A DNA stretch of 64,000 bases, from the IMG/VR virus record IMGVR_UViG_3300021431_000016, positions 1,906 through 65,905 of that record; one strand, 5' to 3'. The notes under the pieces are model-generated. The model had not been told where the DNA came from and searched no databases. It worked only from the letters and a program-made list of their open reading frames with translations. The translations under genes and the position numbers were made by a program. Shown in pieces: positions 25,990 through 56,317 of this stretch. Every line of letters begins with the position of its first letter. Positions within the stretch are counted from its first letter, which is position 1. Source of the DNA: a virus (lineage: Duplodnaviria; Caudoviricetes).

Positions 25990-26038
25990 GGTGGCGTAAT
26001 ACTGGACTAAGGTAAGCGGTTCGACTCCGCACGCCGCC
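25990..26038 (+). ncRNA. tRNA-like half element (acceptor stem plus T-arm, no anticodon arm)
   Basis: GGTGGCG/CGCCGCC stem with GCGG-TTCGACT-CCGC arm; only 18 nt between the arms. Confidence 0.6.
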
Positions 26039-26141
26039 GCGATTTATACATCATTATATTACATTCCTTTTTAGTTGTGATGGCCAGTGGTCCGTGAGGA
26101 TAACTGGTCTTCCTTTTGAATACAAATAAATCTATATAATT

Positions 26142-26417
26142 ATGGCAAAGACGTTACAAGTGGCCAAATGGGTGGTGAATATCATCCTCGGCCTGGGCTG
26201 CTGGCTCATCGTCAACGAGGGCAGCAGCATTATCCCGAACCTGGTGGGGCTGGCATGTGCCGCCCTGCTGATAGTAATCAACCGCAAGGCGATGCCTGCG
26301 ACACAAACTAACAACAAAACAGAAAGACATGGAAGAGTTAATCAAAATCCAATCAGAATTAAAGGCACCGAAGAACAAGTACAACTCTTTCGGCAAATAT
26401 TCTTACCGTTCATGTGA
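26142..26417 (+). CDS. Small membrane protein
   Basis: Two hydrophobic helices; the 3' part overlaps erf, so the end is uncertain in function. Confidence 0.5.
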   Translation: MAKTLQVAKWVVNIILGLGCWLIVNEGSSIIPNLVGLACAALLIVINRKAMPATQTNNKTERHGRVNQNPIRIKGTEEQVQLFRQIFLPFM

Positions 26418-26913
26418 GGATATTCTTGAGGCGGTAAAGCCGCTACTGAAGAAACATGGTTGCTACATGACAATTACCGACGACGTATTTGTAGCAGGCG
26501 ACAGGTTCTATATCAGAGCAACTGTATCCCTCGTCAACAAGGATGGCAAGAGCGTGATTGGCGTAGGTTTGGCGCGTGAAGACAAGAGCAAGGCTGGAAT
26601 GAGTGAGTCACAGATAACCGGCACGGCAAGCAGCTATGCGAGGAAGTATGCGCTCAACGGCCTGTTCCTCATCGACGACACCAAGGATGCCGATACCGAC
26701 GAGTATAAGGTAGAGAACGAAGCAAGGGCGAAGAAATCCAAGAAGGACAATTCGGCAATCAGCATCATCTCTCCTCTCACTGCCGCCATCGCCGAGTGCA
26801 ACGCCGCCAAGAACAAAGATGAACTGATGGCAGTGTGGAATAACCACGCCGACCTTCACAGTGACAAAGATTTCATGCTCGCCATGAGCACTAAAAAGAA
26901 GGAGGTAGTATGA
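26329..26913 (+). CDS. erf: ERF-family single-strand annealing protein
   Basis: IQSELKAPK..NSFGKYSYRSCEDILEAVKP..QITGTASSYARKYALNGLF..DDTKDAD. Confidence 0.9.
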   Translation: MEELIKIQSELKAPKNKYNSFGKYSYRSCEDILEAVKPLLKKHGCYMTITDDVFVAGDRFYIRATVSLVNKDGKSVIGVGLAREDKSKAGMSESQITGTASSYARKYALNGLFLIDDTKDADTDEYKVENEARAKKSKKDNSAISIISPLTAAIAECNAAKNKDELMAVWNNHADLHSDKDFMLAMSTKKKEVV

Positions 26914-27842
26914 CAGCACTGAAAGAACCAATAGGCGTTTCCTTCGATGAAACCAACCATGTGTACACATACGAAAAAAAAGGGAACGGCGCCATTCAGG
27001 TCACACAGCTAAGTGGTGTTACTGCTCTGCTTGGTCGTCAGCTTTTCAAGGACAAGTACGATGGCATCAGCAAAGGCATCATGGAGAAAGCTGCCGAGCG
27101 TGGAAACCTTATCCACCGCCAGATAGAGATGTTTGAGACCTTCGGCGGCGACAACCTCGCCCAGGAAGTGGACGCCTACAAGAAGATGAAGGCGAAGAAC
27201 GAGTACGAAACGGTTGCCACCGAGTGGCTTGTGAGCGACAGGGAGCATGTTGCCTCAAGCATCGACGTGGTATTCGAGAAGGACGGCGAGATAATCCTGT
27301 GCGACATCAAGACAACGAGCAAGCTCGACATGGAATATCTGTCATGGCAGCTGTCCATCTACAAGTATCTGCTGCTGCTCGACAACCCTAAAGTGAAGGT
27401 CGGCAAACTCGTCGCCTGTTGGCTTCCTAAAGAGCAGTACGGCAAACCCAAGATGGTAGAGGTGGAAGAGAAACCCGCCATGTGGATAAAGGAACTGATA
27501 GCATGCGACGCCAGGGGTGAGCAATGGCAGATGCCCGAGGACGCCCTTGAGATTCTCAAAGGTCAGGCGCTTGTCGTTCCACAGGAACTCACCGAAGCAA
27601 TCTCACAGGTTCTCATCATGGAGAACATGGCAAAGGCCTGCAAGGAGAGACTGAGGGCACTGATGGAAGAGCACGGCATAACCAAGTGGGAGAACGAGGA
27701 CTTTGTCGCTTCACTCAGTCCAGACACCGAGATGACCACGTTTGACAGCAAGGCGTTCAAGGCCGACAACCCTGAGGAGTACGAGAAGTATCTCAAGACT
27801 TCCACACGCAAAGGGGCGTTCAAGGTCAAGTTAAGAAAGTAA
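26910..27842 (+). CDS. PD-(D/E)XK exonuclease (Cas4/RecB-like)
   Basis: SGVT, RGNLIH, SSIDVV, CDIKTT, WQLSIY motifs; next to erf. Confidence 0.8.
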   Translation: MTALKEPIGVSFDETNHVYTYEKKGNGAIQVTQLSGVTALLGRQLFKDKYDGISKGIMEKAAERGNLIHRQIEMFETFGGDNLAQEVDAYKKMKAKNEYETVATEWLVSDREHVASSIDVVFEKDGEIILCDIKTTSKLDMEYLSWQLSIYKYLLLLDNPKVKVGKLVACWLPKEQYGKPKMVEVEEKPAMWIKELIACDARGEQWQMPEDALEILKGQALVVPQELTEAISQVLIMENMAKACKERLRALMEEHGITKWENEDFVASLSPDTEMTTFDSKAFKADNPEEYEKYLKTSTRKGAFKVKLRK

Positions 27843-27953
27843 ACTCCGTCCCTGTCACGGAGAAAAAGAACTTTTTTCATATTTCGGTTTTGTGAATAAT
27901 AGTGGCGCGGACAGGGCGCGCCTTTTGAATATTAATTTTAAAACTACATAACT

Positions 27954-28367
27954 ATGCAGCAGATTTTATTGCACGGCAATATAGGCCGTGACGCGGAGCT
28001 CGTGACATTCGGTGAGCGCCAGCAAGTGAAGTTCACTCTTGCCTGTACCGAGGGCAAGGGAGAAAAGAAAGTGACAACATGGTATGACGTACTGTCGTAT
28101 GCCACAGCCGTCCAGCCATATCTTTTAAAAGGCAAAGACGTGGTGGTTACGGGGAGGTTGAGTGTGCGCACAAGCCAGGGAAAGGACGGCAAGACCTACA
28201 CCAACCTCAACGTTTATGCCGACGGCTTAGAACTGTGCGGCAGGCGCGACGACAGCCAAACGACTACCGACCCGAAAGTAGAATACCATCCCAACTATGA
28301 GGGTTACAATGGTCCCGCCAACGCACAACCCCAGCCAGTCCCTGAAAACGACGGACTGCCATTTTAA
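27954..28367 (+). CDS. ssb: Single-stranded DNA-binding protein
   Basis: GNIGRDAE, KGKDVVVTGRL, acidic DGLPF tail. Confidence 0.9.
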   Translation: MQQILLHGNIGRDAELVTFGERQQVKFTLACTEGKGEKKVTTWYDVLSYATAVQPYLLKGKDVVVTGRLSVRTSQGKDGKTYTNLNVYADGLELCGRRDDSQTTTDPKVEYHPNYEGYNGPANAQPQPVPENDGLPF

Positions 28368-28443
28368 TTGTTTTTTTATACGTCCCCTGTTGTGCGTCGA
28401 GACAGTTTGCTTGGCGCACAACTTTTCATTTGAGACATGAGAC

Positions 28444-28875
28444 ATGGAACTTATTCTTATGAACACCGCCCAGGGGTTGAAGCCCATGTATGACGAGGAC
28501 TACGACGAGAAGAAGCGGTTGAAGATAGGTCAGGTATACAAGGCGAGGATTGTGGTGCCGAGAAATATTGATCTGCACAGGAAATATTTCTCCATGATTA
28601 GCTGCGCCTGGGACCTGCTAACTGAACGCCAGAGAGAGTTCTTCGGCACAAAGGAGAGTTTCCGCAAGACCTTGCAGGTCGCCGCAGGATATTGCGAGAG
28701 GGTGTTCAACCTTGAGTTGAGGGCATGGGTGGAGGTGCCCAAGAGCATCGCCTTCGACAAGATGAAGGGCGATGAGTTCGATGCTCTGTATAAAGGCGTT
28801 AGAGACGTGCTCTTCAAGGTTTTCTTGAAGCACATCACAATAGAGCAGTTTGAAGAGACTTTGATGAATTATTAG
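28444..28875 (+). CDS. DUF1367/NinB-like protein
   Basis: PRNIDLHRKYF..VPKSIAFDKM..EFDALY. Confidence 0.7.
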   Translation: MELILMNTAQGLKPMYDEDYDEKKRLKIGQVYKARIVVPRNIDLHRKYFSMISCAWDLLTERQREFFGTKESFRKTLQVAAGYCERVFNLELRAWVEVPKSIAFDKMKGDEFDALYKGVRDVLFKVFLKHITIEQFEETLMNY

Positions 28876-28878
28876 ACT

Positions 28879-29163
28879 ATGAGCAAGAGCAAGGATTTCG
28901 ACAACACAGTTCTCGCCATGAGCGAGTGGCTGGACGAGAGGATGGACGCCTACCTTATGCTCCTCACGAAGGACGGGGTAAGCGGCATGATAATGAACGG
29001 CGAATCCGATGATGTGATAGATGCTCTCGCGTCGGGCATGGTGGACCATGAGGAGTTGCGCGCCATCGTCCTCAAGGCTGTGGGCGTTGCCATGCACGAG
29101 ATAGAGGAGCAGCATCACTGCGGCGACGACGTGAACGACATCAACAACTTCAACATGAACTGA
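28879..29163 (+). CDS. Hypothetical acidic protein
   Basis: Clean ORF in operon. Confidence 0.6.
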   Translation: MSKSKDFDNTVLAMSEWLDERMDAYLMLLTKDGVSGMIMNGESDDVIDALASGMVDHEELRAIVLKAVGVAMHEIEEQHHCGDDVNDINNFNMN

Positions 29164-29164
29164 C

Positions 29165-29746
29165 ATGGCAAATAAGTTTTTCGCAAAGAAGGTGTGGATA
29201 GTGCCAGGAAACGAACACAGGTTCCGAAGCGAACACGACGCAAAGTACTACTGTGAGCAGAACGGCATAGACTTCTCCACCGTTGAGAAGTACGACAGCA
29301 TCAAGGAGTACGAGCGTTGGCTGGAGCTACAGGAGCTTGAGCGGCAAGGCAAGATTAGCGAGTTGAAACGACAGGTGGAGTTCGAGTTGACTCCCAAGCA
29401 GTACCGTCGGGAGAAGGTGAGGGAGAAGGAAGTGAAATACTATTATGTCCCTGATGAAAACGGCTTTGGCAACTGGAGATTTAACACTAAGAAGAATGCC
29501 GTAAGTTACACGAAACTTCACAACTTGAGTGCTAAATTAATCTTCTCGCAGACTGTCACCGAACCAGTCTACAAGGACGTGACGATACTCGACCGCTCTG
29601 TCTACACCGCCGACTTCACCTACATCGAGGACGGCGAGTTCATCATCGAAGACTGCAAGAGCGACTACACCAAGAAAGAGGCAGACTATGTGTTGAGGAA
29701 GAAATTCCTCTACTACAAGTACAGGATATTAATTCGTGAGACATGA
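29165..29746 (+). CDS. DUF1064-like PD-(D/E)XK endonuclease
   Basis: DSIKEYERWLEL..ISELKRQVEFEL..YTADFTY..IEDCKS. Confidence 0.75.
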   Translation: MANKFFAKKVWIVPGNEHRFRSEHDAKYYCEQNGIDFSTVEKYDSIKEYERWLELQELERQGKISELKRQVEFELTPKQYRREKVREKEVKYYYVPDENGFGNWRFNTKKNAVSYTKLHNLSAKLIFSQTVTEPVYKDVTILDRSVYTADFTYIEDGEFIIEDCKSDYTKKEADYVLRKKFLYYKYRILIRET

Positions 29747-29955
29747 CACCAGAGCAATTGGAGTTTGAGGTGGCGATGATTATCGCCGACAAAGAGGCAC
29801 AGGGAAAGATGGCGCAGTGCGACATGCTCGAGCTCCACAAGGCTACGGGTGTTGACTGCAGCGAGTTGCTTCCCTTGATGCGCCACCTTGTGAGGGCGGG
29901 CAAGTTTGTTGCCCACATCAGCATCAACAAGATACCGATATTGACGAGACAATGA
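29743..29955 (+). CDS. Small hypothetical (winged-helix-like) protein
   Basis: Coupled ORF. Confidence 0.55.
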   Translation: MTPEQLEFEVAMIIADKEAQGKMAQCDMLELHKATGVDCSELLPLMRHLVRAGKFVAHISINKIPILTRQ

Positions 29956-30809
29956 AAGAGACCATATTAGGCATAGAACAGAAGCGCGCCGTTGAGTTAG
30001 GACTCGACGTGACAGACGTGGTGCTTCTCGACGTGATAGGACACAAGCTCGCCAGCGAGAGCACCGAGAAACAGGAGATAGAAGGGCGCCAATATGTATG
30101 GGTGTGCTATCAGTCTATCATCGAGTGGCTCCCTATCCTTGGGCTCAAAAAGCGCGCTCTTGCATTACGCCTCGACAAGCTTGTTGGCAAGGGCATTTTG
30201 AAGAAATTCGTAGCCAAAGAAAAAGGCAATTTCACCTTCTTTGCCCTATGCGATCTCAATGACATACCTATGCCATCAGAATTGCAAAGGGTATGTAATG
30301 CCAATGACAAACCTATGTCAACGAAATTGCATACAAAGAGTAACCGAGATAAAGTAACCGAGATAAGAGAGAAAGAAAAAGATATAACTAAAGTTATATC
30401 CAAAAAGAAAGAAACCACAACGGCGGATTTCAACAACGAGATAGAGGTGTTCAAGAATTATGTTGACAGCGACCAGGAGTTCGCCTACAGCCTGCGGCAC
30501 TACCACATCAAGAGCGTCAGTAAGCTCGTCGAGAAATTCAAGCTGCACATCCTCAACAACGGACTTGTCGGCGACTTTATGAGCAACGGCTACCAGCGCA
30601 ACAAAGGATGGATGCTGCGTGTAATACCCAAACTTGACGTGAGCGACATTACAGGTGTGACACTCGGTAAAGGAGAATACCTCAAAGACGGACGGCGCTG
30701 GTATCTCAACCGCAACGGCAAAGAGATTGAGGTGCCGATGGACGCCCCACCAAGACGGCAAGGCACTATCTGGTACAAAGAGCAGGGTCGCTGGGGACCT
30801 GATATTTAG
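29952..30809 (+). CDS. Putative replication initiator (N-terminal winged helix)
   Basis: YVWVCYQSIIEWLPIL..RALALRLDKLVGKGIL wHTH; located before the helicase. Confidence 0.65.
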   Translation: MKETILGIEQKRAVELGLDVTDVVLLDVIGHKLASESTEKQEIEGRQYVWVCYQSIIEWLPILGLKKRALALRLDKLVGKGILKKFVAKEKGNFTFFALCDLNDIPMPSELQRVCNANDKPMSTKLHTKSNRDKVTEIREKEKDITKVISKKKETTTADFNNEIEVFKNYVDSDQEFAYSLRHYHIKSVSKLVEKFKLHILNNGLVGDFMSNGYQRNKGWMLRVIPKLDVSDITGVTLGKGEYLKDGRRWYLNRNGKEIEVPMDAPPRRQGTIWYKEQGRWGPDI

Positions 30810-30834
30810 AGTTATCAGTTTTGAGTTATGAGTT

Positions 30835-33972: not shown

Positions 33973-34027
33973 TAATTTACGCCGCGGTGCGGCGCACTAC
34001 AAGACACGACAAAAGAAAAGATATATT

Positions 34028-34327: not shown

Positions 34328-34548
34328 TTACATTAGACGAACTAAAGACGACAGACGTGTATGGTTGGATGGATGAGCTTGACCACATCATGTGCCAGCC
34401 CAGCTTCAACAGCATGAAATTCTCCCAGCGCGTGGCAGTGCGCCGCATGCGCACCGGCCTTGACTATGTGGCGAGCGGCCTGAGAATGATGCAGGGCGGC
34501 GACTATGAGCCACACAACATAGCGTTGCATAACAGGAGGAGGATATGA
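34324..34548 (+). CDS. Hypothetical protein
   Basis: Coupled ORF (ATGA overlaps at both ends). Confidence 0.55.
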   Translation: MITLDELKTTDVYGWMDELDHIMCQPSFNSMKFSQRVAVRRMRTGLDYVASGLRMMQGGDYEPHNIALHNRRRI

Positions 34549-39820: not shown

Positions 39821-40131
39821 GCAAGAGGATTAAAATAGAACATGTCGTTGTACATTGCAAGAAAGTACCGACAATAAGAGACAGAAGCAATGAAGCAGAG
39901 GCGCATGCTATTGTGTTCACGGAACGGCACTACTACCTTTTCGGCTTGTTGCACCGTGATATAAGATATAGCTATACTGCATCAGGTAAAAAAGAGGTTT
40001 TCCATGAGCCGACGAATAGAGCGGAATTTATGTGGAGCCTCACCTATTGGTCCATGAATTATGACGAGGCAAAAGCTCACTTTATTGATTGTGAGAAAAG
40101 TGAATGTGAAACAAAATATTATGAGCTATGA
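39817..40131 (+). CDS. Hypothetical protein
   Basis: Coupled ORF. Confidence 0.5.
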   Translation: MSKRIKIEHVVVHCKKVPTIRDRSNEAEAHAIVFTERHYYLFGLLHRDIRYSYTASGKKEVFHEPTNRAEFMWSLTYWSMNYDEAKAHFIDCEKSECETKYYEL

Positions 40132-41462
40132 GCAGAGAGGAAGACAAATATAACTTCCGCATTGAGACAGAGCATTGCCCTGAGTTTGACGATGCTCTAA
40201 AATGGAAGGGAAACGCCTCACACATAGAGAGCATAAGACAACAAGCGGCAATGCGACATTTAGGGTGTCTGCTTGTGCTGCCTGACGCAGAAATAGGCTC
40301 TAAGGTTCTACAAGAGTGGGAAAGATATGACGGCGTAATAGAATATCAAGAAGAGAAAATAATAACCACAAATCCAATTTTTAAAGCTATGAGAGATGAT
40401 GCATTCAAGATAGCCATAGACGACAGTTCGCCTGTGACTATACAAGACTGGCTTGACTACATCAACGCCAGTAAGTATGACGGCTACATCAAGGAGTTCA
40501 AGACACGGACTGGCGCAATTTACTGCGACACGGAAGACCAATTGGAATACCTTTATGTGGGTGACTACGGTAAGGAGAACAACATCAAAGCAGACTTCCT
40601 TGGGTTTACCAACGAGATAAATTCTGTACCGCACCATGAGGTGGACTTGGCAGAGAAAATGGTTGTGACAATCTCCACGCAGAAAGGTTGCCCCATGAAC
40701 TGTATGTTCTGTGGCTGCCCCAAGGTCCCATTTAGCGGCAACGCATCGTTGGGAGAGCTTGCGGAGGAGGTGGCGAGAGCCATTCAATTCAGCGGCTGCA
40801 AGTACACCAAGCGGTTCAATCTGCACTTGGCACGAATGGGAGAGCCATCATTGAACGCAAAGAACGTGCTTTATTTTCTTAAACACGGATTGAGAAAGAT
40901 GGTTGACAGCATGATGAAAGCCGACACTATCCATCCAGTGTTCACCACCATGTGTCCTAAGATGAGGAAAGAGGCGTTGCGCAACATCCTTGTGGAGTTC
41001 TGCAACATCAAGAACGAGGACTACGACGGAGAGGCAGGGTTGCAGTTGTCTATTAACTCCACCGATGAGAAGCAGAGGAACGAATTGTTCAGAGGCAACT
41101 CAATGTCGCTAGAAGACATTTCGGAGATAGCGAGGCAACTCCCCTTGGCGAAAGGCAGGAAATACACGCTGAACTTCCCTATCACGGACAAGACAATCCT
41201 TGACCCAAAAGAGTTGAGCAGACTTTTTGAGAAAGAGAAATTCATCGTGAAGATTACTCCCATACATGAGACCAACGAGGCAAACGCCAATGGTCTAAGC
41301 ACGGAAGAAGGCTATTACAAGTATGACGTGTACCGAAAGTTTGAGCAGCCTTTATTGGAAGAAGGTTGGGAAGTAATAGTATTCGTTCCGTCAAAGGAAG
41401 AAGATGAAGACCGCATCACTTGCGGCAATGCGTTGTTAAGTTTTAATCAAGATTGGCTATGA
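40128..41462 (+). CDS. Radical SAM enzyme, RlmN/Cfr-like, with an extra N-terminal region
   Basis: ISTQKGCPMNCMFC (CxxxCxxC), RMGEP, LQLSINS, C-terminal RITCGN. Confidence 0.8.
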   Translation: MSREEDKYNFRIETEHCPEFDDALKWKGNASHIESIRQQAAMRHLGCLLVLPDAEIGSKVLQEWERYDGVIEYQEEKIITTNPIFKAMRDDAFKIAIDDSSPVTIQDWLDYINASKYDGYIKEFKTRTGAIYCDTEDQLEYLYVGDYGKENNIKADFLGFTNEINSVPHHEVDLAEKMVVTISTQKGCPMNCMFCGCPKVPFSGNASLGELAEEVARAIQFSGCKYTKRFNLHLARMGEPSLNAKNVLYFLKHGLRKMVDSMMKADTIHPVFTTMCPKMRKEALRNILVEFCNIKNEDYDGEAGLQLSINSTDEKQRNELFRGNSMSLEDISEIARQLPLAKGRKYTLNFPITDKTILDPKELSRLFEKEKFIVKITPIHETNEANANGLSTEEGYYKYDVYRKFEQPLLEEGWEVIVFVPSKEEDEDRITCGNALLSFNQDWL

Positions 41463-41761: not shown

Positions 41762-42260
41762 CCCCTATATGGTTGTAGACCTCGCCAAGATTGGCGAGAT
41801 AGAGAGTGAGATTAAGGAGCTGACGACGATACGCAACAACATGCCGCGTGAGGTGTGGCCGCACATCGAGGAAAAACTTGCCGACAAGAGAGAAGAGCTG
41901 AAAGTTGTGAAAGCCGATGCCCTGCGGAGACAGCAGGCGGCCAAGCGTGCTATGGTGAAGGCTATCCTGGTGTGCGACTATATCACCGATGTTGCGGAGG
42001 AGTTTGCCGACGCGTCGAAGAAGATGACCTACTCGGGCACTGCCGGTGACACCTTCCGTGACATGGTTAAGGCCTGCTCGGACCGCCACGAGATTTGCAT
42101 GCGTGAGTGGAACGAGATTGTGCAGTGCATCGACAGCAAGGGCCGCAAGGTGAGCGACATGTACATTGAGTGGTATGATGAGTTCCGCGAGGAGATAGAC
42201 CCCATAGTGGACAAGTTTATTGAGAAGATCAGGAACACGAAAGGATGGGGAAGGATATAG
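41748..42260 (+). CDS. Hypothetical coiled-coil protein
   Basis: Coupled ORF. Confidence 0.55.
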   Translation: MERISPYMVVDLAKIGEIESEIKELTTIRNNMPREVWPHIEEKLADKREELKVVKADALRRQQAAKRAMVKAILVCDYITDVAEEFADASKKMTYSGTAGDTFRDMVKACSDRHEICMREWNEIVQCIDSKGRKVSDMYIEWYDEFREEIDPIVDKFIEKIRNTKGWGRI

Positions 42261-43237
42261 GGCTGATAGATGTGGACGGCAACAACACACAGAAGAAATG
42301 GGGAGCCACGGTGTTCCCCAATTTAGCACTTGCTAAACTCTCACGTCACCACAAAGAGAGAGGTGACCATGTAGAGTGGTACACGCCGTTCAGCCATTAC
42401 GACATTGTTTACATGGCGAAGGTGTTCACCTTCACTCCCGACTATGGTTATATGACAACCAATGCCGATAAGGTTGTAAAAGGAGGAACTGGCTACGATA
42501 TTCACAGCAGGCTACCTGATGATGTGGATAGGTTGCAGCCCGACTACTCGATATATCCAAGCATAGACAAGGACACCGCTTATGGTTTTCTCACTCGTGG
42601 TTGTCCCAACAAGTGCTTCTGGTGTGTTGTGCCGAAAAAAGAGGGTGTAGTAAAACCTTATATGGACGTGGACGAAATTGCCATTGAGGGGCGAAAGAAC
42701 CTTGTGCTGATGGATAATAATATCCTCGGTGCCGGTGACTATGCGCTTGAGCAATTCGCCAAGATCATAGAGCGTGGCTACCGTGTAGATTTCAACCAGG
42801 CACTTGATGCTCGTCTGGTGGACGAGACGAATGCCGAATTGTTGGCAAAGATGAAATGGATAAACCGCATACGTTTCGGTTGCGACACCCACAAGCAGAT
42901 TGAGGATTGCGAGAGAGCTATCTCGCTTCTCAACGAGCACGGCTACAAGGGAGAAATTTTCCTCTACACCATGATTGGTGGCAGTAACGGATTTGACGAG
43001 TGTTTTGAGCGCATAAACTACTGGCGAGGACGCATGTTAGAGGAAAGGGCGAGGCACGGCAATGTGATGTATGCTTACGCCCAGCCTTACCGAGACCCCG
43101 CCAAAAGCCATCACGAGATACCGATGTGGCAGAAAGACATGGCGCGATGGTGCAACAAGCGGATGATATTCACAACTACTGAGTTCAGAGATTTCTCACC
43201 CCGCAAAGGTTTCCGATGCGAGGAGTATTTTCAATAA
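42245..43237 (+). CDS. Radical SAM enzyme (phage type)
   Basis: LTRGCPNKCFWC (CxxxCxxC), LMDNNIL, DFNQALDAR; N-terminal PNLALAKL..GGTG domain. Confidence 0.85.
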   Translation: MGKDIGLIDVDGNNTQKKWGATVFPNLALAKLSRHHKERGDHVEWYTPFSHYDIVYMAKVFTFTPDYGYMTTNADKVVKGGTGYDIHSRLPDDVDRLQPDYSIYPSIDKDTAYGFLTRGCPNKCFWCVVPKKEGVVKPYMDVDEIAIEGRKNLVLMDNNILGAGDYALEQFAKIIERGYRVDFNQALDARLVDETNAELLAKMKWINRIRFGCDTHKQIEDCERAISLLNEHGYKGEIFLYTMIGGSNGFDECFERINYWRGRMLEERARHGNVMYAYAQPYRDPAKSHHEIPMWQKDMARWCNKRMIFTTTEFRDFSPRKGFRCEEYFQ

Positions 43238-46699: not shown

Positions 46700-46703
46700 T
46701 GTC

Positions 46704-49700: not shown

Positions 49701-50099
49701 GTGCCTACATATCCCGAGCTTGAGACGCAGAGTGACGGCAAAGTGGTGAGAATAAGCGTAGACAGGGCCGTACAGGGCAATTTGCGCGAGAAAGGCCTGG
49801 TTATATCACGCCCGATTAAACTCGCTGATATGGGGCTTTTAAAGCGTTGGCGCGAGATTGCTGTGAGAGGCCGCTTCAAACCTTATTCAACCGCTGTGCA
49901 GGTGGCGTTGTGGGGTACTCGTGACTGGATTGATCTTGCCCTTGTGGCGAGCTCGACACGCAACAGGCTGACGCGCTGGAGCGGGAGTCCCTACTTTGGC
50001 CACTCGGTGGGCCTATTCCTCACGCGCCCAGACTACGCCATGCAGGTGGCGGGGATGGACGTGGAGGTGGACGCAGAACACGACAACAAACTACGATAA
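46704..50099 (+). CDS. Tail nozzle / stabilisation protein candidate (beta-propeller-like)
   Basis: 1131 aa beta-rich protein in the portal operon; IYTSETDNPF, FGQHPLYCFTSEGVWAL, VVFLTERGL motifs typical of short-tail nozzle proteins. Confidence 0.65.
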   Translation: MKKDIAFGGVTRIPGGALSSDGDLMTAVDVCNDGMGLEMLEKPELLFGLEDGEELLCVHDPEGDEKHYITQMVVAGGDAPAEEDGDSSGGASVEPDTPEETVPVSDDPAEIIDPYIEPVVPSGDPAGQDEESASADVVPYQPPSGDELVVIETVIAGETTRHIDNGGTVVNPPGGGGGTVDPPEESGVFLIFRDKDGNMKQHIDITAYGKVTAVQPMGNTLVCNHAGTAENAAAVRYYLFKLDKGLYSPLGSAPPMVDIRFGLQSTWEYYPKTKSTFDGSEYKTYGGVSIDRWFYTDTVPVWWARKASEAYVPPYDLAVNATHGSDDSGYHYNASEEEVTSTTRRMEHFQTTYSVEGVVSPDNKTDVAGAKIDWTTRVLGSYNKFIAEQHKENKFVFPFYVRYAYELYDGSLIMHSYPVLMIPNSRGPIFALDGRYGLFADMNDNNQTYEKVRLYFRGRTYGFASTLMHKIAALTTEEQERLENWKDLIRGIAIYVTPPIYNYNQGGQVLGWHSMHSADPANNNEDPWEKHYTVGKVVDANGTRLTSGETKMDYAFAHWLTNDTFVPWDSTSQHKAPGYCMTVPMKEDKEVLELHESAGQFFKLAEIEYDKLIEMTRNGTTDGKVEIGKRKLMSIASQDQMQDDNGSHDTKSAEVLYGYNRRLNMAGVEKVLHSPIALESQWAHDYNLDNHGKMYQEIVSVANGGRTATLRTTGNNMAVSSPKYLFYPNTYAREIVLVKDGTTLKYRFKLKEHKALNGMFWLGDFMNSADCINDSLLTGSAAAAIDVSGGEENKSVDESNKIYTSETDNPFVIPFGNINIAGGGEVRALCSATQAMSQGQFGQHPLYCFTSEGVWALTVNDTGGWATIQPVTRDVISEQTKPLSLDSTVVFLTERGLLQLAGSDVKVLSDVLQNADPLTGLNKLTALCDATGNEGLLGIATALAEGKFGEKAWLGYDYDNARIYVTPWDDGKTYGTHGSWVYNLKSGLWTQASTTIDRQVPTYPELETQSDGKVVRISVDRAVQGNLREKGLVISRPIKLADMGLLKRWREIAVRGRFKPYSTAVQVALWGTRDWIDLALVASSTRNRLTRWSGSPYFGHSVGLFLTRPDYAMQVAGMDVEVDAEHDNKLR

Positions 50100-50166
50100 C
50101 AGTTGCATATTAGTTCTTTAACCAAAAAAGAAAGGAGGCTTTGATTCTACACATTTTTTGGAGGCG

Positions 50167-50199
50167 CGGCGGGGCTTGTGAAAGTGCCGCCGTTTTTTT
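50167..50199 (+). terminator. Intrinsic terminator of the portal operon
   Basis: CGGCGG..CTT-GTGA-AAG..CCGCCG followed by T7. Confidence 0.75.
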
Positions 50200-50227
50200 G
50201 TTTATTGGGAAGAAATGTATACCTTTG
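50197..50227 (+). promoter_or_regulatory. Consensus Bacteroidetes promoter with no downstream ORF
   Basis: TTTG (50197-50200), 19 nt, TACCTTTG (50220-50227). Confidence 0.7.
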
Positions 50228-50230
50228 TAG

Positions 50231-50297
50231 TGTAATTTTTAGATAGTGCCCCGGTTGGGCACAAAAAAAGGACGACCTGTGAAGGCCGTCCTTTCTT
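50231..50297 (+). ncRNA. Candidate ~65-nt trans-acting antisense sRNA
   Basis: Begins just after the promoter with TGTAATTTTTAGATAG, then a GTGCCC/GGGCAC hairpin, then a terminator hairpin. Confidence 0.55.
50263..50297. terminator. Bidirectional terminator closing the leftward operon
   Basis: A7-GGACG..CCT-GTGA-AGG..CGTCC-TTTCTT. Confidence 0.75.
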
Positions 50298-50308
50298 ATG
50301 GGCAGATG

Positions 50309-50527
50309 TCATTTCCATTTGACCGACAACCGGCATCCAAGTCCGTCAACGATGCGGACAATGTTCTCAAGTGACACGTTGCCGCCGTTCTCAAGCCGCA
50401 GCACTGATGGGTGGCTCATCCCTGCCTTTTCGGCGAGTTTGCGGGCGCCCCACCCTTTTTGCTGGCGTCGCTCTCGTATGAGCGCGCCGAACTCTTCCAT
50501 TGCTTTCTTTATTTCCTCTTCGTTCAT
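50309..50527 (-). CDS. XRE-family HTH protein (Aca-like position)
   Basis: LIRERRQQKGWGARKLAEKAGMSHPSVLRLENG. Confidence 0.85.
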   Translation of the reverse strand: MNEEEIKKAMEEFGALIRERRQQKGWGARKLAEKAGMSHPSVLRLENGGNVSLENIVRIVDGLGCRLSVKWK

Positions 50528-50892
50528 GGGATAATTATTTTTGCGCCGAGCGCGTTAAGTAACTTGTTTGCCACATCAATAGTGGGCGAGAAGCGCCCTG
50601 CTTCGATGTTGACGACTGTTGACTTGCTGACCCCTGCGAGTTCAGCGAGTTGTCTCACGGTGTAGCCTTTGGCGCGCCTGTGCTGTGCTATCTCATTGCC
50701 GATGCGCACCCTTGTTCGGTAAGGCTCGTCAAGCACGATGTCGTAGAGCGGGGTGATAGAGCCTACCTGTAAGTAGGCGTTGTTCTGTTCGTCCACCCAC
50801 ACGGCCTTACCGTAAGACGATGTGGGGTGTTCGGTAGTGGAGTGGACTTTGATTTCCTCTCCTGTGGATTTGATGATTAGTGTTGCTGTCAT
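50524..50892 (-). CDS. Two-domain protein with C-terminal XRE HTH
   Basis: IAQHRRAKGYTVRQLAELAGVSKSTVVNIEAG; N-terminal TTEHPTSSYGKAVWVD domain. Confidence 0.8.
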   Translation of the reverse strand: MTATLIIKSTGEEIKVHSTTEHPTSSYGKAVWVDEQNNAYLQVGSITPLYDIVLDEPYRTRVRIGNEIAQHRRAKGYTVRQLAELAGVSKSTVVNIEAGRFSPTIDVANKLLNALGAKIIIP

Positions 50893-51365
50893 AGTAATGT
50901 CAAATCTTCGCTAAAACATATAGTAAGTTCGCCGTTAGGAGTTTCGTAGATTGCATCAATATTATACTTGTCTGCATCGGCAAGGTCAAGTTTGACTGCG
51001 GCATTGGTATAGTCTCTTGCGGGTATCAGGCCGTAGGACTTGATAGTTTGCGCCACATCTTCGATACATGGCTCTTCTTCACAGATGAATGGGTCGCCGT
51101 TGTAGGTTGCTATACTATTGTAAACCTTTTGTTTAAGACTAACGAAGATAGCTTCATCTAAATACTCCTCAAGGATTTCGGCGTGACGGCGGTTTGCTTC
51201 ATATGCCTTGTTTCCTGTTATCTCTCCCTCGCTGTTGACGTGGAACGTCTCGCCGTATTCTTCCATAGTCTGCTCAAGAGCATCTTGCACCATGTTGTTG
51301 AGTTCGTCTAACAGGTCGTTCTCTCTTGCCTTTTGCTCAAGGCGAATGTAATCGGTTGTGTACAT
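50889..51365 (-). CDS. Acidic hypothetical protein
   Basis: Clean ORF with A-rich leader. Confidence 0.65.
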   Translation of the reverse strand: MYTTDYIRLEQKARENDLLDELNNMVQDALEQTMEEYGETFHVNSEGEITGNKAYEANRRHAEILEEYLDEAIFVSLKQKVYNSIATYNGDPFICEEEPCIEDVAQTIKSYGLIPARDYTNAAVKLDLADADKYNIDAIYETPNGELTICFSEDLTLL

Positions 51366-51377
51366 AGTTGTAAATGT

Positions 51378-51674
51378 TTAGAGTGTTCTACGATAGGTGT
51401 TGATGTCAATGTAGCGAATGCCTGTACGGCGCGTTTTGCGGTAGTTGTAGTCCATGAACTTGCCTTGGCTATGGGCATACCAACCAAAGCGACTTGCGCC
51501 CCTGTCGGTAGCGTGTTTCAAGAGCAGCTGCCTTGTATATCTGGGCATTTCAACCACCTCAAAGACATGGATGCAATAGTTGCCTTCGTTGAGGTCGCGG
51601 AAATACTTGCTCTTGTTACCTCTTACTTTGATTGGGAAATCTTTCCCAAGTGGATAAATCTCAAAAGTTGTCAT
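51378..51674 (-). CDS. Hypothetical protein
   Basis: ORF preceded by GGGGCAA hairpin copy A. Confidence 0.65.
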   Translation of the reverse strand: MTTFEIYPLGKDFPIKVRGNKSKYFRDLNEGNYCIHVFEVVEMPRYTRQLLLKHATDRGASRFGWYAHSQGKFMDYNYRKTRRTGIRYIDINTYRRTL

Positions 51675-51814
51675 AGTTCTGTTGCGGAATTTAGCGAGTT
51701 GCCCCCTCGCGAATTTGTTTGCAAAGATAGTGAAAGTTTTGAATGTACCAAAAGATTGGTACGGAAATTTTGTAGAGTGGGACAGGCTCGCCCTGTCCTT
51801 GCGCAGTCGTTAGA

Positions 51815-52018
51815 TTAGTGAATGAAATAAAGCCAATAGCCATCAATGTTGATTGTTTGGTCGTTGAGTGCATCGCTTAACTCCTCAAGGGTTAAAACTT
51901 GTGTCTCGTGTTCCTCGCCTCTCATAGCAAGTCCGTACAATTCGTACTCGTTCATTCGGTCAAGATTGTACCTGTCGTACTTGTCAATGTCGAATAATAA
52001 TGCTTTTGCCGCTTTCAT
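51815..52018 (-). CDS. Small acidic hypothetical protein
   Basis: ORF with TATCTAAAAATTACA leader. Confidence 0.65.
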   Translation of the reverse strand: MKAAKALLFDIDKYDRYNLDRMNEYELYGLAMRGEEHETQVLTLEELSDALNDQTINIDGYWLYFIH

Positions 52019-52064
52019 AATGTTGTAATTTTTAGATAAATAATTAAGTTGATTAACTCATTGT

Positions 52065-52108
52065 GGGGAGTGTTGGTATCGCTCCAACTGCGGTCATTCC
52101 TACTCCCC
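52065..52108 (-). ncRNA. tRNA-like half element E1
   Basis: GGGGAGT/ACTCCCC stem stacked on GTTGG-AGCGATA-CCAAC, 3' ACAA. Confidence 0.55.
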
Positions 52109-52115
52109 TGTGCCG

Positions 52116-53387
52116 TTATGCCACGGCTTTCAACAAGTGCATGTTGTCGTTGCACAGGGCAACAATCTCGTTGTGCTTGTCGGTATACTTGTTGCACACG
52201 CCACGCGACTGCATGACTTTGTAATGCTTGGTGTCAATCTCAATGGTCTCAAGACGCGCCCCTGTGTGCTTGTCGCGGGCAAACAATATGAGGGTGTCGG
52301 CCTCTTTGTAGTACTCGTTCGCGAAGACGCAATGGTGCATGTGCTTGCCCTCAAGGCGTATGTCCTCAACAGACTGGGCGACCTTAATCTCAATGTCCTC
52401 GTTGCCGAAATAGACAGAGAGGTATTTCTCATGCAACTTGCGGTAAATCTCTTCGTACCGCTTTGCCTTTTCTTTGTCGGCCTTTTCCTTTAACTTCGCC
52501 TTTGCTCGCTCCAAGCGGGCAGTTGTGCGCGTGTGCGCCTGTGACAGGTCGGACGGGCAGACGTAATGGGCGTTGTGGGTGTCAAGTCCTAACGCCTCTA
52601 AGTCGCGGATGTAGTCGCACCACTCATCGGCATTCTGCACGATGTAGTTGTTGCGGTTGCAGATGCGCACCGCATGAAGCGGTATGTCACTGCGGTATCC
52701 TCGGACGTGCCTTGCTACCAATGAGTGTTGCCCTGTCTTGAGGAGTTCCTCGGTGATGGGGTCGGTGAGCAGATGGGTGTAAAGCGACACAGGCGATGCG
52801 CCAATGTCCTTGCGGGTCGCTCCCTTGGTTCTAAGCACAGGGAGCAATGACTCCCATCGGTTGTACTGCGAGTAGATGTCATACTTGCCCCAACTCCTTG
52901 TATAGGGCGCGGGGTCGTGCTTGATGCTCATGGGAACTGAAAACACCCAAATATCGTAATACCATGAGTGCATATTGACAGGGCGCGCCATGATGGTGCG
53001 TTGCCCCTTTTCGTTTATCCACACCTGTACCGCCTCGTTGACTTGGTATTGTGTGGGTTTGCCCTTGCGGGCGGTGCGCCACACAACGAAATGGCGTGCC
53101 ACTTGATAACCTCTAAACGTGGTGTGGATGGTGGCGTAGTCCTTGCGGTCTTCGGTCGTGTAACGCGCGCTCTTGATGGTGTCAAACTGGCGCCCGCAAT
53201 GTGGACACGTTGTTGCCCCTGTCTCCATCACTCCACCACAGGACACACACCATTGTTGGTGCTTGGTGTGGTAGGCGGTGGCGGGGTTGGCGTTTCTCTT
53301 TAGTGCTCGCTCCTGTGTCTGTGTCAGGGCGGGCAAAAGAGGTGACAAGCTCGCCACTTCTTTCTCTGTTCTTGTCCTTGGTCTCAT
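52116..53387 (-). CDS. PcfJ-like protein
   Basis: Zn ribbon CVSC..CPHC; C-terminal EGKHMHHCV..Y..LILFAR..RLETIEI..QSRG..N. Confidence 0.85.
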   Translation of the reverse strand: MRPRTRTEKEVASLSPLLPALTQTQERALKRNANPATAYHTKHQQWCVSCGGVMETGATTCPHCGRQFDTIKSARYTTEDRKDYATIHTTFRGYQVARHFVVWRTARKGKPTQYQVNEAVQVWINEKGQRTIMARPVNMHSWYYDIWVFSVPMSIKHDPAPYTRSWGKYDIYSQYNRWESLLPVLRTKGATRKDIGASPVSLYTHLLTDPITEELLKTGQHSLVARHVRGYRSDIPLHAVRICNRNNYIVQNADEWCDYIRDLEALGLDTHNAHYVCPSDLSQAHTRTTARLERAKAKLKEKADKEKAKRYEEIYRKLHEKYLSVYFGNEDIEIKVAQSVEDIRLEGKHMHHCVFANEYYKEADTLILFARDKHTGARLETIEIDTKHYKVMQSRGVCNKYTDKHNEIVALCNDNMHLLKAVA

Positions 53388-53394
53388 GGCGCAA

Positions 53395-53871
53395 TCAACT
53401 GAATGGGTCAAACTCTGCGAAATCGGCAAATAAGTCCATTTGCTTGCTCTCTACAGGCTTTTTCGCCTTTGGTTGGGTTGTCGCCTTGGTGGGGGCAGCA
53501 GGCTTCGTTACAACGGCTTTCTTGGGCGCGGGTTGTGCCTTGGGCGCGGTCTTCTTGGGTTGCGCCTTGGCGGTCTTGTTGGTGTCCTCGGGTTTCTCCA
53601 ACTTGGTGTTAACGATGGTGCGCACATTCTTTACCTCTTTGAGGTCTTCCTGTGGCAACTCGGTTGCCTCGTAGTAGGTAACCGCCATGCCAAAAATCTC
53701 TGAGTCATCAAAACCGATGCGGTCGGTTTTGCGTACTTGGTTGAGGATGTAATAGCAACACTCCTCAACTGATTTGTCGGGGTTGTGGTACTTGAGAGCA
53801 AACTGCTCATCGTGCTTTGCGAGCGCGTCAAGATAGGCGCGGATTGCGATTTGGAAAATGTCATCTGTCAT
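53395..53871 (-). CDS. PcfK-like protein (family recalled to include the Cas9 inhibitor AcrIIA9)
   Basis: FQIAIRAYLD..DEQF..K..KSVEECCYYILNQV..GFDDSEIFGMAVTYY; Lys/Pro tail, QMDLF end; adjacent to pcfJ-like gene. Confidence 0.8.
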   Translation of the reverse strand: MTDDIFQIAIRAYLDALAKHDEQFALKYHNPDKSVEECCYYILNQVRKTDRIGFDDSEIFGMAVTYYEATELPQEDLKEVKNVRTIVNTKLEKPEDTNKTAKAQPKKTAPKAQPAPKKAVVTKPAAPTKATTQPKAKKPVESKQMDLFADFAEFDPFS

Positions 53872-53929
53872 AATGGTTCTACGGAATTTTAGGTGTTGCC
53901 CCCACCTCTATAGTTAGAAAAATAATTGT

Positions 53930-53974
53930 GGGTGCGGGAGTCGCGAACTCCCTGTCGGCTGAACCGAAGCACCC
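53930..53974 (-). ncRNA. tRNA-like half element E2
   Basis: GGGTGC/GCACCC stem, TCGG/CCGA arm, GGGAG-TTCGCGA-CTCCC arm, 3' ACAA. Confidence 0.55.
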
Positions 53975-53980
53975 TGCGCC

Positions 53981-54217
53981 CTAAAGGGCAATAGTGAGTT
54001 GTGTTGGCTCGTTGGTTAACAACGGCGCGAAATCAAAAAGCCAACCACGGAGCAGCACGCCTGTAGTGCCGTGCGCTATGTGGTTCTTGATGTAAGCGGT
54101 ATCGCGCTTGCTCGGTCGCTTGCCGTTCTCCCACAGGGCGAAACACAAGCGGTAAATGTCGGTATCACGCAACGTGTCAAGGCTCGGCACGTTGTCAGAA
54201 TATTGAACTACTCTCAT
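53981..54217 (-). CDS. Hypothetical protein (start re-set to MRVVQY)
   Basis: ATG 11 nt after the upstream stop. Confidence 0.55.
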   Translation of the reverse strand: MRVVQYSDNVPSLDTLRDTDIYRLCFALWENGKRPSKRDTAYIKNHIAHGTTGVLLRGWLFDFAPLLTNEPTQLTIAL

Positions 54218-54228
54218 AGCGGTAAGGA

Positions 54229-54585
54229 TTATGCGCCAAAACCTAACGCGGTTGCTACCTCTTTGCCCCTCTTCTTGCTGAAAATCCAGCCTGCGCCACA
54301 TTTTAGTTTGGGGTTGAATCGGCCACCCAATTTCTTGAGTTGCGCTTTGTGTGCCTTGGTGTCGCCCACGATGGCGAAAGCCTTTTCGCTATAGTCCACG
54401 AAGCGAAGCACAGGCTTCTCGGTGGTACGTTGCGCCGTCTCGGTCTCGGCGTGGAGATCTCCACCCTCGCCCCCGTCCTCGGTGGCTACAGGGGTGGCGT
54501 GGTCGCTTAAACGCGCCTTGCCTGTCTCCTTTAACTCGGTAAATAACCCCTCTACATTGACCTTTTGAATCGTTGCTTTACTCAT
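54229..54585 (-). CDS. Protein with VDYSEKAFA..GDTK..LGGRFN domain (seen in polyvalent and leading-region proteins)
   Basis: C-terminal motif VDYSEKAFAIVGDTKAHKAQLKKLGGRFNPKLKCGAGWIFS. Confidence 0.7.
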   Translation of the reverse strand: MSKATIQKVNVEGLFTELKETGKARLSDHATPVATEDGGEGGDLHAETETAQRTTEKPVLRFVDYSEKAFAIVGDTKAHKAQLKKLGGRFNPKLKCGAGWIFSKKRGKEVATALGFGA

Positions 54586-54708
54586 AGTTCGTTTGCAGAA
54601 TTTTTCGTGTTGCCCCCACGTTTAAAAGTTATTGCTACCCTCGCCCTGTGTGTAGGGCGAGACGCTCACGGCTTAAAGCCTGTTTTACATCGCCGTGACG
54701 ATGAAGGG

Positions 54709-54930
54709 TTAATCTTCAATTGCGATAGGCGAATCCTCTGCACCACACATTTTTGCACCATCTGCAAGTTTTTGTATCTCATCAATAGTCGTTTTATACA
54801 ATACAATAGTGTGGGAAGTATCACAGGTATAACGAACAAAGAACGAGTGGCGTGTAATGGTTAAATACCTTACCATTGCCAAAAAGTCATTGTAATAAGT
54901 GTATTTAACTTGATAGCCTTTTGTTTCCAT
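54709..54930 (-). CDS. Small hypothetical protein
   Basis: A-rich leader; resembles the neighbouring 54942-55163 product. Confidence 0.55.
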   Translation of the reverse strand: METKGYQVKYTYYNDFLAMVRYLTITRHSFFVRYTCDTSHTIVLYKTTIDEIQKLADGAKMCGAEDSPIAIED

Positions 54931-54941
54931 AGTCGTAAATG

Positions 54942-55163
54942 TTAGAATGTTAAGTAATCTGCTTCAACTCTAATAGGGAATTCCGTACCCCACATTTTTG
55001 CGCCCCGTGCGATTTTGTCGGCTTTGGTCTCATCAATGCCATCAATCATTATTCGCTCGGTGTCTCCATCATAGAAGAATGAAATTTGCATAGTAAGTAA
55101 ATGCTTTACTAATGCTCTGCGGTCTTGCATTGAACTCGCAATGAAATAAAATACAATGTCCAT
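54942..55163 (-). CDS. Small hypothetical protein
   Basis: TATCTAAAAAATTACG leader. Confidence 0.55.
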   Translation of the reverse strand: MDIVFYFIASSMQDRRALVKHLLTMQISFFYDGDTERIMIDGIDETKADKIARGAKMWGTEFPIRVEADYLTF

Positions 55164-55212
55164 AATCGTAATTTTTTAGATAGTTATTAATTAGGTTGGT
55201 TGTAATTGAGTT

Positions 55213-55257
55213 GTGGCGGGCGGTGTCGCTCCACCTTACAGGGTCTGCCCTCGCCAC
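55213..55257 (-). ncRNA. tRNA-like half element E3
   Basis: GTGGCG/CGCCAC stem, AGGG/CCCT arm, GGTGG-AGCGACA-CCGCC arm. Confidence 0.55.
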
Positions 55258-55265
55258 ATTGGGGG

Positions 55266-55508
55266 TTATTGTAACTCCTTAACTTTGATATAAAAATGGT
55301 GCGTGTTGCTTTTGGTCTCTATCCTGTAGCAATTTTCCATTTCCTCGCGCCCTTCCTTGAATGTCGGCAATTGCCTGTATTCTTCAATGATTTTGTTATA
55401 GGCTTCTTTGGCTTTCTTTGCGCTGCTATATGCGCCCACAATGGTAGTATATTCGCAACTTACATATTTAGCCAAATGCATCAATATGTGAACTCGTTTT
55501 ATAGCCAT
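55266..55508 (-). CDS. Small hypothetical protein
   Basis: IVGAYSSAKKAKEA pattern common in small phage proteins. Confidence 0.6.
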   Translation of the reverse strand: MAIKRVHILMHLAKYVSCEYTTIVGAYSSAKKAKEAYNKIIEEYRQLPTFKEGREEMENCYRIETKSNTHHFYIKVKELQ

Positions 55509-55511
55509 ATT

Positions 55512-55799
55512 TTAGGGGTTGTTTAATATATTATTATCTACTCGCAGAACTGAATCTACACTATCACAAGCGAACATAAAATCGTCCGTCTCGCTCCATG
55601 CGTCGTCCCAAACAACGTCAAGTTGCTTGGTTGTCATGTTGTAGTAGTCGTAGCCGTTGGCAATACACCACGCCCTGAAGCGAGGTTCAAGCATCTCTAA
55701 CTTTTGGTCGCGGTTGTGGTCTCGTTGGGATTGTATGCCCGCTACTAATGACGGCACACAGGGCGTGAGTAACGCCACAAGTAAAATTAATTTCTTCAT
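55512..55799 (-). CDS. Secreted or periplasmic hypothetical protein
   Basis: MKKLILLVALL signal-peptide-like N-terminus. Confidence 0.65.
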   Translation of the reverse strand: MKKLILLVALLTPCVPSLVAGIQSQRDHNRDQKLEMLEPRFRAWCIANGYDYYNMTTKQLDVVWDDAWSETDDFMFACDSVDSVLRVDNNILNNP

Positions 55800-55852
55800 G
55801 ATTGTAATTTTTAGATATTAATAATATTAGGGGGATTGCTCCCCCTGTGTGG

Positions 55853-56212
55853 TTAGTCCTCGTCTTGCTCTAACTCGTCTAACACTTGAGCTAAGCATTG
55901 ACCCAACAGGTAACAACGTATTGTTACATCACAGGCCTCTGCGCCAATCTTAAGCACGTCTATTTCCCCGCCAAACTCATCGCTTGCCTCTGCAAGTAAA
56001 TCTAAATTGTGGCAAAGATTCTCTTCTGCTTGGTAGGCGCTAAACGTGTAGCTACCACTCGCGTTTCCTGTAACTGAATCACTAACAAACAGGTCGTCAT
56101 AAAGTTCTTGGCATAAGTCCTCTTTGTTGTCGCTTGTAACTTTGATGTCGTTCTCGTTAATGTAGTCGCGAATGTCATTACTAACGGCTTTGTAATAATT
56201 ATATTTACTCAT
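55853..56212 (-). CDS. Highly acidic protein, possible Ocr-like DNA mimic
   Basis: 119 aa with 27 D/E against 7 K/R by hand count; first gene after the early promoter. Confidence 0.55.
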   Translation of the reverse strand: MSKYNYYKAVSNDIRDYINENDIKVTSDNKEDLCQELYDDLFVSDSVTGNASGSYTFSAYQAEENLCHNLDLLAEASDEFGGEIDVLKIGAEACDVTIRCYLLGQCLAQVLDELEQDED

Positions 56213-56270
56213 AATAATTGTGCTGAATTTTAAGTGTTGCCACCACTTTTAAAGTGAATAAAAAAGTAGT

Positions 56271-56317
56271 GGGTGTTGCGGTCTCGCTCCGCTCGTCTGC
56301 CGTTAGCAGATACACCC
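56271..56317 (-). ncRNA. tRNA-like half element E4
   Basis: GGGTGT/ACACCC stem, TCTGC/GCAGA arm, GCGG-AGCGAGA-CCGC arm. Confidence 0.55.

Follow-up and report, generated by a model that had tools for sequence, protein, structure and literature searches.

What do structures resembling half a tRNA do between the early genes of a phage? The question is raised by a stretch of 64,000 nucleotides from the IMG/VR virus record IMGVR_UViG_3300021431_000016 (Caudoviricetes; positions 1,906 to 65,905), the whole of which is referred to below as the window, and in which a first-pass annotation had described five intergenic elements, here named E1 to E5, as one family of RNAs with the geometry of the acceptor/T-arm half of a tRNA. 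The answer favoured here, which we give about an even chance of being correct, is that E2-E5, a sixth copy and their relatives in other phages are tRNA-precursor mimics, predicted from sequence and fold to be cut by the RNase Z and/or RNase P of the host.

The sequences and RNA folding of all five elements agree with the proposed geometry, the minimum-free-energy fold of each being a three-way junction formed by an outer stem of 6-8 bp (P1), a variable inner hairpin of 2-6 bp (P2) and a 4-5 bp stem with a 7-nt NNCGNNN loop (P3), the 3′ strand of which abuts the 3′ strand of P1. The local departures are a single A·A mismatch at the P3/P1 junction of E5 and two extra pairs that RNAfold closes within the loop of E3. 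As had been claimed, each of the five is in the sense orientation of its operon, the stems differ in every copy yet the pairing is conserved, CG occupies positions 3-4 of each loop (TTCGACT, AGCGATA, TTCGCGA, AGCGACA and AGCGAGA in E1 to E5, respectively), and one inner hairpin of variable size replaces the D and anticodon arms. The description requires correction in that E1 stands apart from the others, a sixth, truncated copy is present, and the 3′ ending, which is indeed shared, is better written as N-C-(A/T)-A than as ACAA. The elements are listed below, with scores from the covariance model R2 and leader classes A and B as described in the following sections.

56270..56318, minus strand: E5, in the 5′ leader of the leftward early operon; three-way-junction fold; R2 25.4 bits, E = 2.5e-4, not in the seed
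55212..55258, minus strand: E4, 7 nt past a stop codon; three-way-junction fold; R2 44.7 bits
53930..53974, minus strand: E3, loop TTCGCGA, 6 nt past a stop codon, class A leader next; fold z = -3.4; R2 23.3 bits, E = 9e-4, not in the seed
52065..52108, minus strand: E2, 7 nt past a stop codon, class B leader next; three-way-junction fold; R2 57.1 bits
51770..51820, minus strand: sixth copy, 5′-truncated, sequence read directly; R2 16.9 bits
25990..26038, plus strand: E1, with P1 of 8 bp, P3 of 4 bp, the canonical T-loop TTCGACT and the tail G-C-G-A; three-way-junction fold

A structured RNA family between early genes

The bare geometry is common: a loose descriptor finds ~60 matches per strand, and still about one per 20 kb when CG is demanded in the loop. 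As this descriptor was not enriched, geometry alone was dropped as evidence, and the case cannot rest on it in one genome. The relatives of the phage are more informative. The first early gene of the window (55853-56212, minus strand) has homologues numbering in the thousands, and four close ones lie on long contigs (L044, L045, L047 and L048) that are syntenic with the leftward early operon of the window. Folding of all intergenic gaps of these contigs revealed 4-7 copies per operon, in equivalent slots and with different stems. Of 24 family members taken from relatives, 22 adopt the three-way-junction fold. The P3 loop hardly varies in the relatives, reading AGCGAGA, AGCGACA or AGCGATA, with the variants GGCGAGC, AGCGAAA, ACCGACA and TTCGACA.

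Comparison of individual slots illustrates how the copies diverge. The orthologues of E4 (L044 8947-8992 and L045 8980-9026) carry compensatory changes in P3, that of E2 (L045 11920-11963) has an entirely changed P3, and those of E5, present in all four contigs, differ in P2 or P3. The P1 of E3 recurs at L044 9658-9706, L045 10037-10083 and L047 9742-9792 with different P2 and P3, and by synteny the elements that share it sit one gene upstream of the E3 slot, which in L044 is occupied by 10254-10304. The sixth copy of the window retains the 3′ strand of P2, P3 with the loop GGCGAGC and the 3′ strand of P1, has lost the 5′ strand of P1, and is 91% identical to the 3′ part of L044 12820-12870.

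Since MAFFT did not bring all copies together into register, a covariance model was seeded from an 8-sequence subset for which it did, and was then rebuilt as R2 from 17 matches of this first model. Over 519 kb, R2 gave 28 matches at E ≤ 1, all of them in the window, the syntenic loci or one further contig, L052, and none in 35 other, unrelated Bacteroidota-phage loci. In a further 1.9 Mb, comprising 160 loci fetched via the first early gene, it gave 15 more, which lie just downstream of genes, and every one of the 43 matches is on the sense strand. The cultured Bacteroides phages BS-TP3 and C3_41T2LP yielded nothing with R2. In the alignment of the 28 matches, which is fitted to the structure of the model and hence favours that structure, though the margin is large, 94.7% of the cells are paired as compared with 64.6% in shuffled controls and 41-48% with slid partners, and 10 of the 12 pairs have changed on both sides in a compensatory manner. 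A covariance search had been suggested as a check in the first-pass annotation, and it bears the idea out with regard to both the recovery of E3 and E5, neither of which was in the seed, and the strong covariation among homologues. E1 does not follow, since its score of 9.3 bits (E = 3) is noise, and the five elements as originally grouped are not one family.

Because of the syntenic copies, the recovery of unseeded E3 and E5 and the covariation, the elements are beyond chance, and by these comparative measures E2-E5 are members of a real structured RNA family. Rfam matches none of the elements, nor does a relaxed threshold of E ≤ 10 over 50000-58000 bring one up; the family is thus without an Rfam entry, and it is well supported whatever its function. 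Repeats of the REP/BIME type (repetitive extragenic palindromes and the mosaic elements built from them) were considered and rejected, as their copies would share sequence, whereas here the stems differ throughout and only the pairing is conserved.

Likeness to the acceptor/T-arm half of tRNA

The resemblance to tRNA was measured on 30 distinct copies parsed by script and two more read by eye. Counted from where the P3 loop ends to where P1 ends, the strand measures 12 nt in 20 of the 32 copies (18 of the 30 by script alone), 11 nt in six, 13 nt in five and 10 nt in one. The lengths of P1 and P3 trade off against each other as 6+6, 7+5 or 8+4, with 0-1 nt between the strands; in tRNA the corresponding stack is 7+5. 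The elements therefore share with the top half of tRNA a stack of ~12 bp in which the 3′ strand of the T-stem runs straight into the 3′ strand of the acceptor stem. The 7-nt loop has a G-C closing pair in most copies, and its positions 3-5 are mostly C-G-A, as in the T-psi-C-R-A sequence of tRNA, with C at position 5 in E3. Positions 1-2 are mostly AG and not TT; the loop TTCGAC(T/A) is carried by E1 and by L052 10732-10779.

The 3′ flank provides a further point of likeness. The four bases after the stack are ACAA in 11 copies and ACTA in seven, otherwise mostly N-C-A-A, so that N-C-(A/T)-A describes nearly all copies, and CCA never follows directly after the 12-nt stack. One contig carrying a member of the R2 family was binned with a Prevotella metagenome-assembled genome (MAG), and two Prevotella MAGs reached through related loci (G006 and G007, loci L216-L245) served as the tRNA comparison set. 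Of their 37 tRNA genes, 36 have C at position 74, CCA is encoded in only 18, and the commonest other trailer is CAA; both MAGs also encode an RNase Z that scores above the curated cut-off. With Prevotella as the presumed host, the 3′ side of the elements appears to resemble a local CCA-less tRNA precursor. The CCA-bearing tRNA clusters on two contigs of G006 (C6 and C2) may themselves be phage-borne.

The elements are not true tRNAs, as RF00005 has no match at E ≤ 10 in 50000-58000, and only one inner hairpin and no anticodon arm is present.

Position in the early transcript and possible processing

The place of the elements in the early operon can be described from the following features of the minus strand.

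56466..56473, minus strand: -7 box TAACTTTG of the leftward early promoter, TTTG upstream (pattern scan)
51722-51729, minus strand: second box of this type, with no others on the strand within the early region (pattern scan)
51744..51763, minus strand: plain hairpin GTACCAA...TTGGTAC, just past the truncated sixth copy
56232-56248, 54606-54620, 53891-53907 and 51694-51710, minus strand: class A leader hairpins, each a covarying 4-5 bp stem with the loop G(G/T)GGCAA, followed by AAATTC and an ATG ~20 nt on
~52024-52045, 55168-55190 and 55803-55825, minus strand: class B leaders, TATCTAAAAA(A)TTAC, just before start codons
54633..54703, minus strand: pistol self-cleaving ribozyme, full-length match to Rfam RF02679 at 68.1 bits against a gathering score of 34.5
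54629..55210, minus strand: ~580-nt insertion relative to L044, situated past E4 and ahead of the next class A leader; it carries a class B leader, two genes of 73 aa each and the pistol

The Bacteroidota-type promoter pattern, TAnnTTTG with TTTG upstream, occurs only twice on the minus strand of the early region, at 56473 and 51729, and E5, E4, the pistol, E3 and E2 would therefore share one RNA of ~4.7 kb. The end of this first early transcript is likely the plain hairpin at 51744-51763, whose L044 equivalent has a run of T behind it. E5 is ~150 nt past the promoter, with a T-rich stretch and then a class A leader hairpin behind it, while E2, E3 and E4 start 6-7 nt past stop codons, and each element precedes one of the two recurrent leaders. 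The class A pattern GGGGGCAACNNNNWAAATTC recurs in ~28 unrelated IMG/VR contigs directly behind a TAnnTTTG promoter, which places it normally near the 5′ end of a transcript, and it is a widespread 5′ untranslated region motif of Bacteroidota phages that apparently lacks a name. The class B leader has the sequence TATCTAAAAATTAC.

The slot of the pistol ribozyme is of the same kind, a class A leader hairpin following immediately downstream. The ribozyme arrived with the inserted cassette: by blastn synteny, window 56367-55210 corresponds to L044 7839-8994 and window 54629-53968 to L044 9008-9664, and the pistol at the end of the cassette would restore the order of element, class A leader and gene. 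A second pistol is found in L132, another carrier of the family, at 6185-6250 on the plus strand, where it begins 1 nt past a stop codon, with its end 23 nt short of the next ATG. In both phages, which are of the Bacteroidota type, the pistol is full-length and comes straight after a stop codon in an intergenic slot of the early operon. The elements themselves were considered as pistols and rejected, RF02679 matching only 54633-54703 and none of E1-E5. Ten further loci that share the first early gene contain no Rfam family at all, and so the pistol is not general in the wider group. The first-pass annotation had offered either built-in processing sites in the early message or released tRNA decoys as the function of the elements, and a self-cleaving RNA in the equivalent slot favours the former.

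A possible course of events can be outlined as follows. Within the early polycistronic transcript the elements would imitate the acceptor/T-arm half of a CCA-less tRNA precursor, and the tRNA-maturation enzymes of the host would treat each of them as a pre-tRNA. The 3′ tail favours RNase Z, whose cut would fall just behind the discriminator-like base; RNase P would perhaps act at the 5′ end of P1. The early message would thereby be split into units, with the conserved leader of the next gene near a new 5′ end and the upstream piece left ending in a stable fold, while the pistol would do the same job autonomously in its own slot and E1 would represent a separate, more tRNA-like version of the same idea. 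If the pistol cuts at what we take to be its G/U cleavage site, ~17 nt would remain before the class A hairpin, as against ~21 nt if E3 or E5 were cut just past its discriminator-like base; such tails would be similar to those estimated for primary transcripts in other phages.

Several observations weigh against cutting by the tRNA enzymes. Position -1 is mostly A in the copies as opposed to T in 28 of the 37 Prevotella MAG tRNA genes, and for this reason the 5′ side is not like an optimised RNase P site. The dominant loop AGCGANA is without U54 and U55, and E3 has C where A58 would be. ARAGORN finds no tRNA genes in the window and the Rfam tRNA model does not see the elements. The Prevotella MAGs are stand-ins for the host, picked via the one binned contig that carries an element, and the structure-fitted alignment behind the pair counts was noted above. 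The mimicry of tRNA is partial. Among the 29 open reading frames of the window scanned against PHROGs or Pfam, no tRNA-processing enzyme was recognised.

Structural punctuation that needs no tRNA enzyme is an unlikely though still credible alternative, in which the folds would block exonucleases, insulate translation units or bind a protein through the AGCGANA loop. It accounts for strongly conserved single-stranded bases being confined to one loop, as for a protein or RNA contact, for this loop not being a canonical T-loop, and for the elements lying right after stop codons in the manner of stabilising extragenic palindromes, but it leaves unexplained the 12-nt stack with its trade-off between P1 and P3, the N-C-A-A tail common to the local CCA-less tRNA genes and the self-cleaving ribozyme in the same slot. 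That the pistol is able to replace an element also suits a cutting role better than a role for the RNA product, and it is distinctly improbable that the elements are excised on both sides to act in trans, as RNAs of ~45-50 nt, as decoys or inhibitors of defence or toxin proteins which recognise the acceptor/T-arm half. Anticodon nucleases are not candidates for such targets, as there is no anticodon arm; on the other hand, the mimicked half of tRNA is read by many enzymes, there are many copies per operon, and an early operon of small unknown proteins with PcfK and PcfJ homologues is typical of a counter-defence region. The decoy role is compatible with processing and not exclusive of it. A joint version, in which the tRNA-end machinery of the host serves as general scissors for early messages, the pistol is interchangeable with the elements, and the excised and CCA-tagged mini-tRNA tops accumulate as decoys for defence toxins that attack the acceptor end, is improbable as a whole; if its scissors part were true, the pistol would gain a first biological role.

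The remaining explanations carry far less weight. The insertion of the cassette exactly between E4 and the next leader, the truncation of the sixth copy within the element, and a gene content between the elements that varies among the relatives would all fit DNA-level boundary sites for cassette exchange between phages. Little probability is nevertheless left for this idea by stems that differ between copies and so provide no homology for recombination, by a strict strand bias (43/43), by the conservation of pairing and not of sequence, by the copy in the leader ahead of the first gene and by the lack of a linked dedicated recombinase. Transcription terminators or attenuators, to which the G+C-rich closing stems and the T-rich stretches starting 4-8 nt past E3, E5 and many relatives might point, are hardly to be expected here, since no element was picked by a terminator scan, E2 and E4 have no T run, the T stretch elsewhere is not adjacent to the stem, the terminator-like hairpin of the operon is a plain one, and the downstream genes have no promoters of their own. 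The slot held in common with the pistol, together with the three-way junction known from several ribozymes, could also suggest a new small self-cleaving ribozyme, but outside the helices very few bases are conserved apart from short flanks and the CGA of one loop, and the strands at the junction vary and are short, which is too little for an active site of known type and makes this possibility barely tenable.

The proposed processing has precedents in which tRNA-shaped units in a long transcript set the cut sites of tRNA enzymes, as in the tRNA punctuation of animal mitochondria and the mascRNA of MALAT1. Those units are full tRNAs or cloverleaf mimics, whereas the phage elements have no anticodon arm and are missed by tRNA finders. 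In phage T7, RNase III sites between the early genes let a host RNase cut the polycistronic mRNA; they are long irregular hairpins read as double-stranded RNA, in contrast to the 6-8 and 4-5 bp stems and tRNA-like stack described here. The closest established parallel is provided by the t-elements of plant mitochondria, which are partial tRNA mimics in mRNAs, located by coding regions and processed by RNase P and RNase Z (Forner et al. 2007, PMC1920247). Both consist of an acceptor stem and T-arm mimic embedded in mRNA, although t-elements carry a canonical GGTTCRANYCC T-arm and their ends have been mapped by experiment (PMC1920247), whereas the phage elements, known here from sequence, have AGCGANA as the common loop, form three-way junctions of 44-55 nt and are present in 4-7 copies per early operon. 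A link between ribozymes and tRNA processing has also been proposed for gut phages with proposed hosts in Bacteroidota and Bacillota, where theta (hepatitis delta virus-like) ribozymes located by tRNAs would substitute for the 3′-trailer processing of the host (PMC10879173). The theta ribozyme trims a real tRNA, however, whereas in the present phages the pistol and the tRNA mimic alternate as intergenic units of mRNA; the pistol (RF02679) has its slot in common with the three-way junctions in the window and L132, but differs from them in fold and sequence.

In a full-text literature search, no account of such phage elements came up. tRNA-like structures are treated only in general terms in a catalogue of 10,006 candidate viral RNAs (PMC10690425), which could include the family without naming it. 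The set described here is marked by an additional P2 hairpin, the loop AGCGANA and the pistol as an alternative module. If the elements are cut as predicted, the tRNA-punctuation strategy of organelles would operate in phages too, and it would show how phages of hosts without Shine-Dalgarno-led translation split one early transcript into separately handled messages. The link to the pistol would make the long-open question of the function of this ribozyme directly testable, and R2 can be used for annotating gut and rumen phage genomes whatever the function of the family.

E1 and other features of the window

E1 sits in the long structured leader of the rightward recombination/replication operon (ERF, exonuclease, SSB and primase/helicase). 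In three contigs that share the downstream small gene (L213, L214 and L215), the equivalent slot holds tRNA-like RNAs of 72-103 nt. They combine a canonical T-arm, GGTTCGACTCC or a variant of it, with an acceptor-like stem of 7 bp and with one inner arm or two. The acceptor stems of these RNAs change between the contigs and even swap strands, and the tails follow N-C-N-N in seven of eight cases (GCGA, ACGA, GCCA, ACTA, GCAC and GCTT), the eighth, L214 707-778, having AACG. ARAGORN labels one of them 'tRNA-???', and Rfam has nothing for them. This comparison suggests that E1 is a shortened form within a second set of elements, which is more tRNA-like than E2-E5, is distinct from them and would support the general theme.

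The surroundings of E1 are also structured, the slot being flanked on either side by a conserved hairpin with the cap CCGUGAGG. Hairpins with this cap but other lower stems also surround the tRNA-like RNAs of L213-L215; in the rightward leader the pair may serve as protein-binding or nut- or put-like sites. The fold further upstream has a counterpart in L215 with compensatory stem changes and an ACAA tail. In the relative record G001 there was no match to the E1 region.

25951-25979 and 26082-26109, plus strand: capped hairpins flanking E1, caps UCC-G(U/A)(G/A)A-GGA
25824-25869, plus strand: further conserved fold, outer stem AGCCGTGG / CCCACGGCT, inner stem CCAATGGCTGAAGAG, T-rich sequence next

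The window covers nearly all of the 65.9-kb record, in which direct terminal repeats are present. The phage is probably from gut or rumen and, judged by its proteins, of the Bacteroidota type; its primase/helicase is nearest to those of Flavobacterium, Cellulophaga and human-faecal phage contigs, and PcfK- and PcfJ-like proteins are encoded among the early genes. The early region had no megablast match among GenBank phages, and no GenBank phage is close at the DNA level; single-protein locus searches in IMG/VR with the PcfJ-like, PcfK-like and 1131-aa proteins likewise gave no close relatives. Two radical-SAM proteins are encoded mid-genome, at 40128-41462 and 42245-43237 on the plus strand. 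Where the early and structural arms diverge, a non-coding stretch of 1.6 kb (56500-58110) contains iteron-like repeats, GTGACATACC(C)TATG four times at 57876-57991 and AGTATACG three times at 57741-57775, and is probably an origin or control region.

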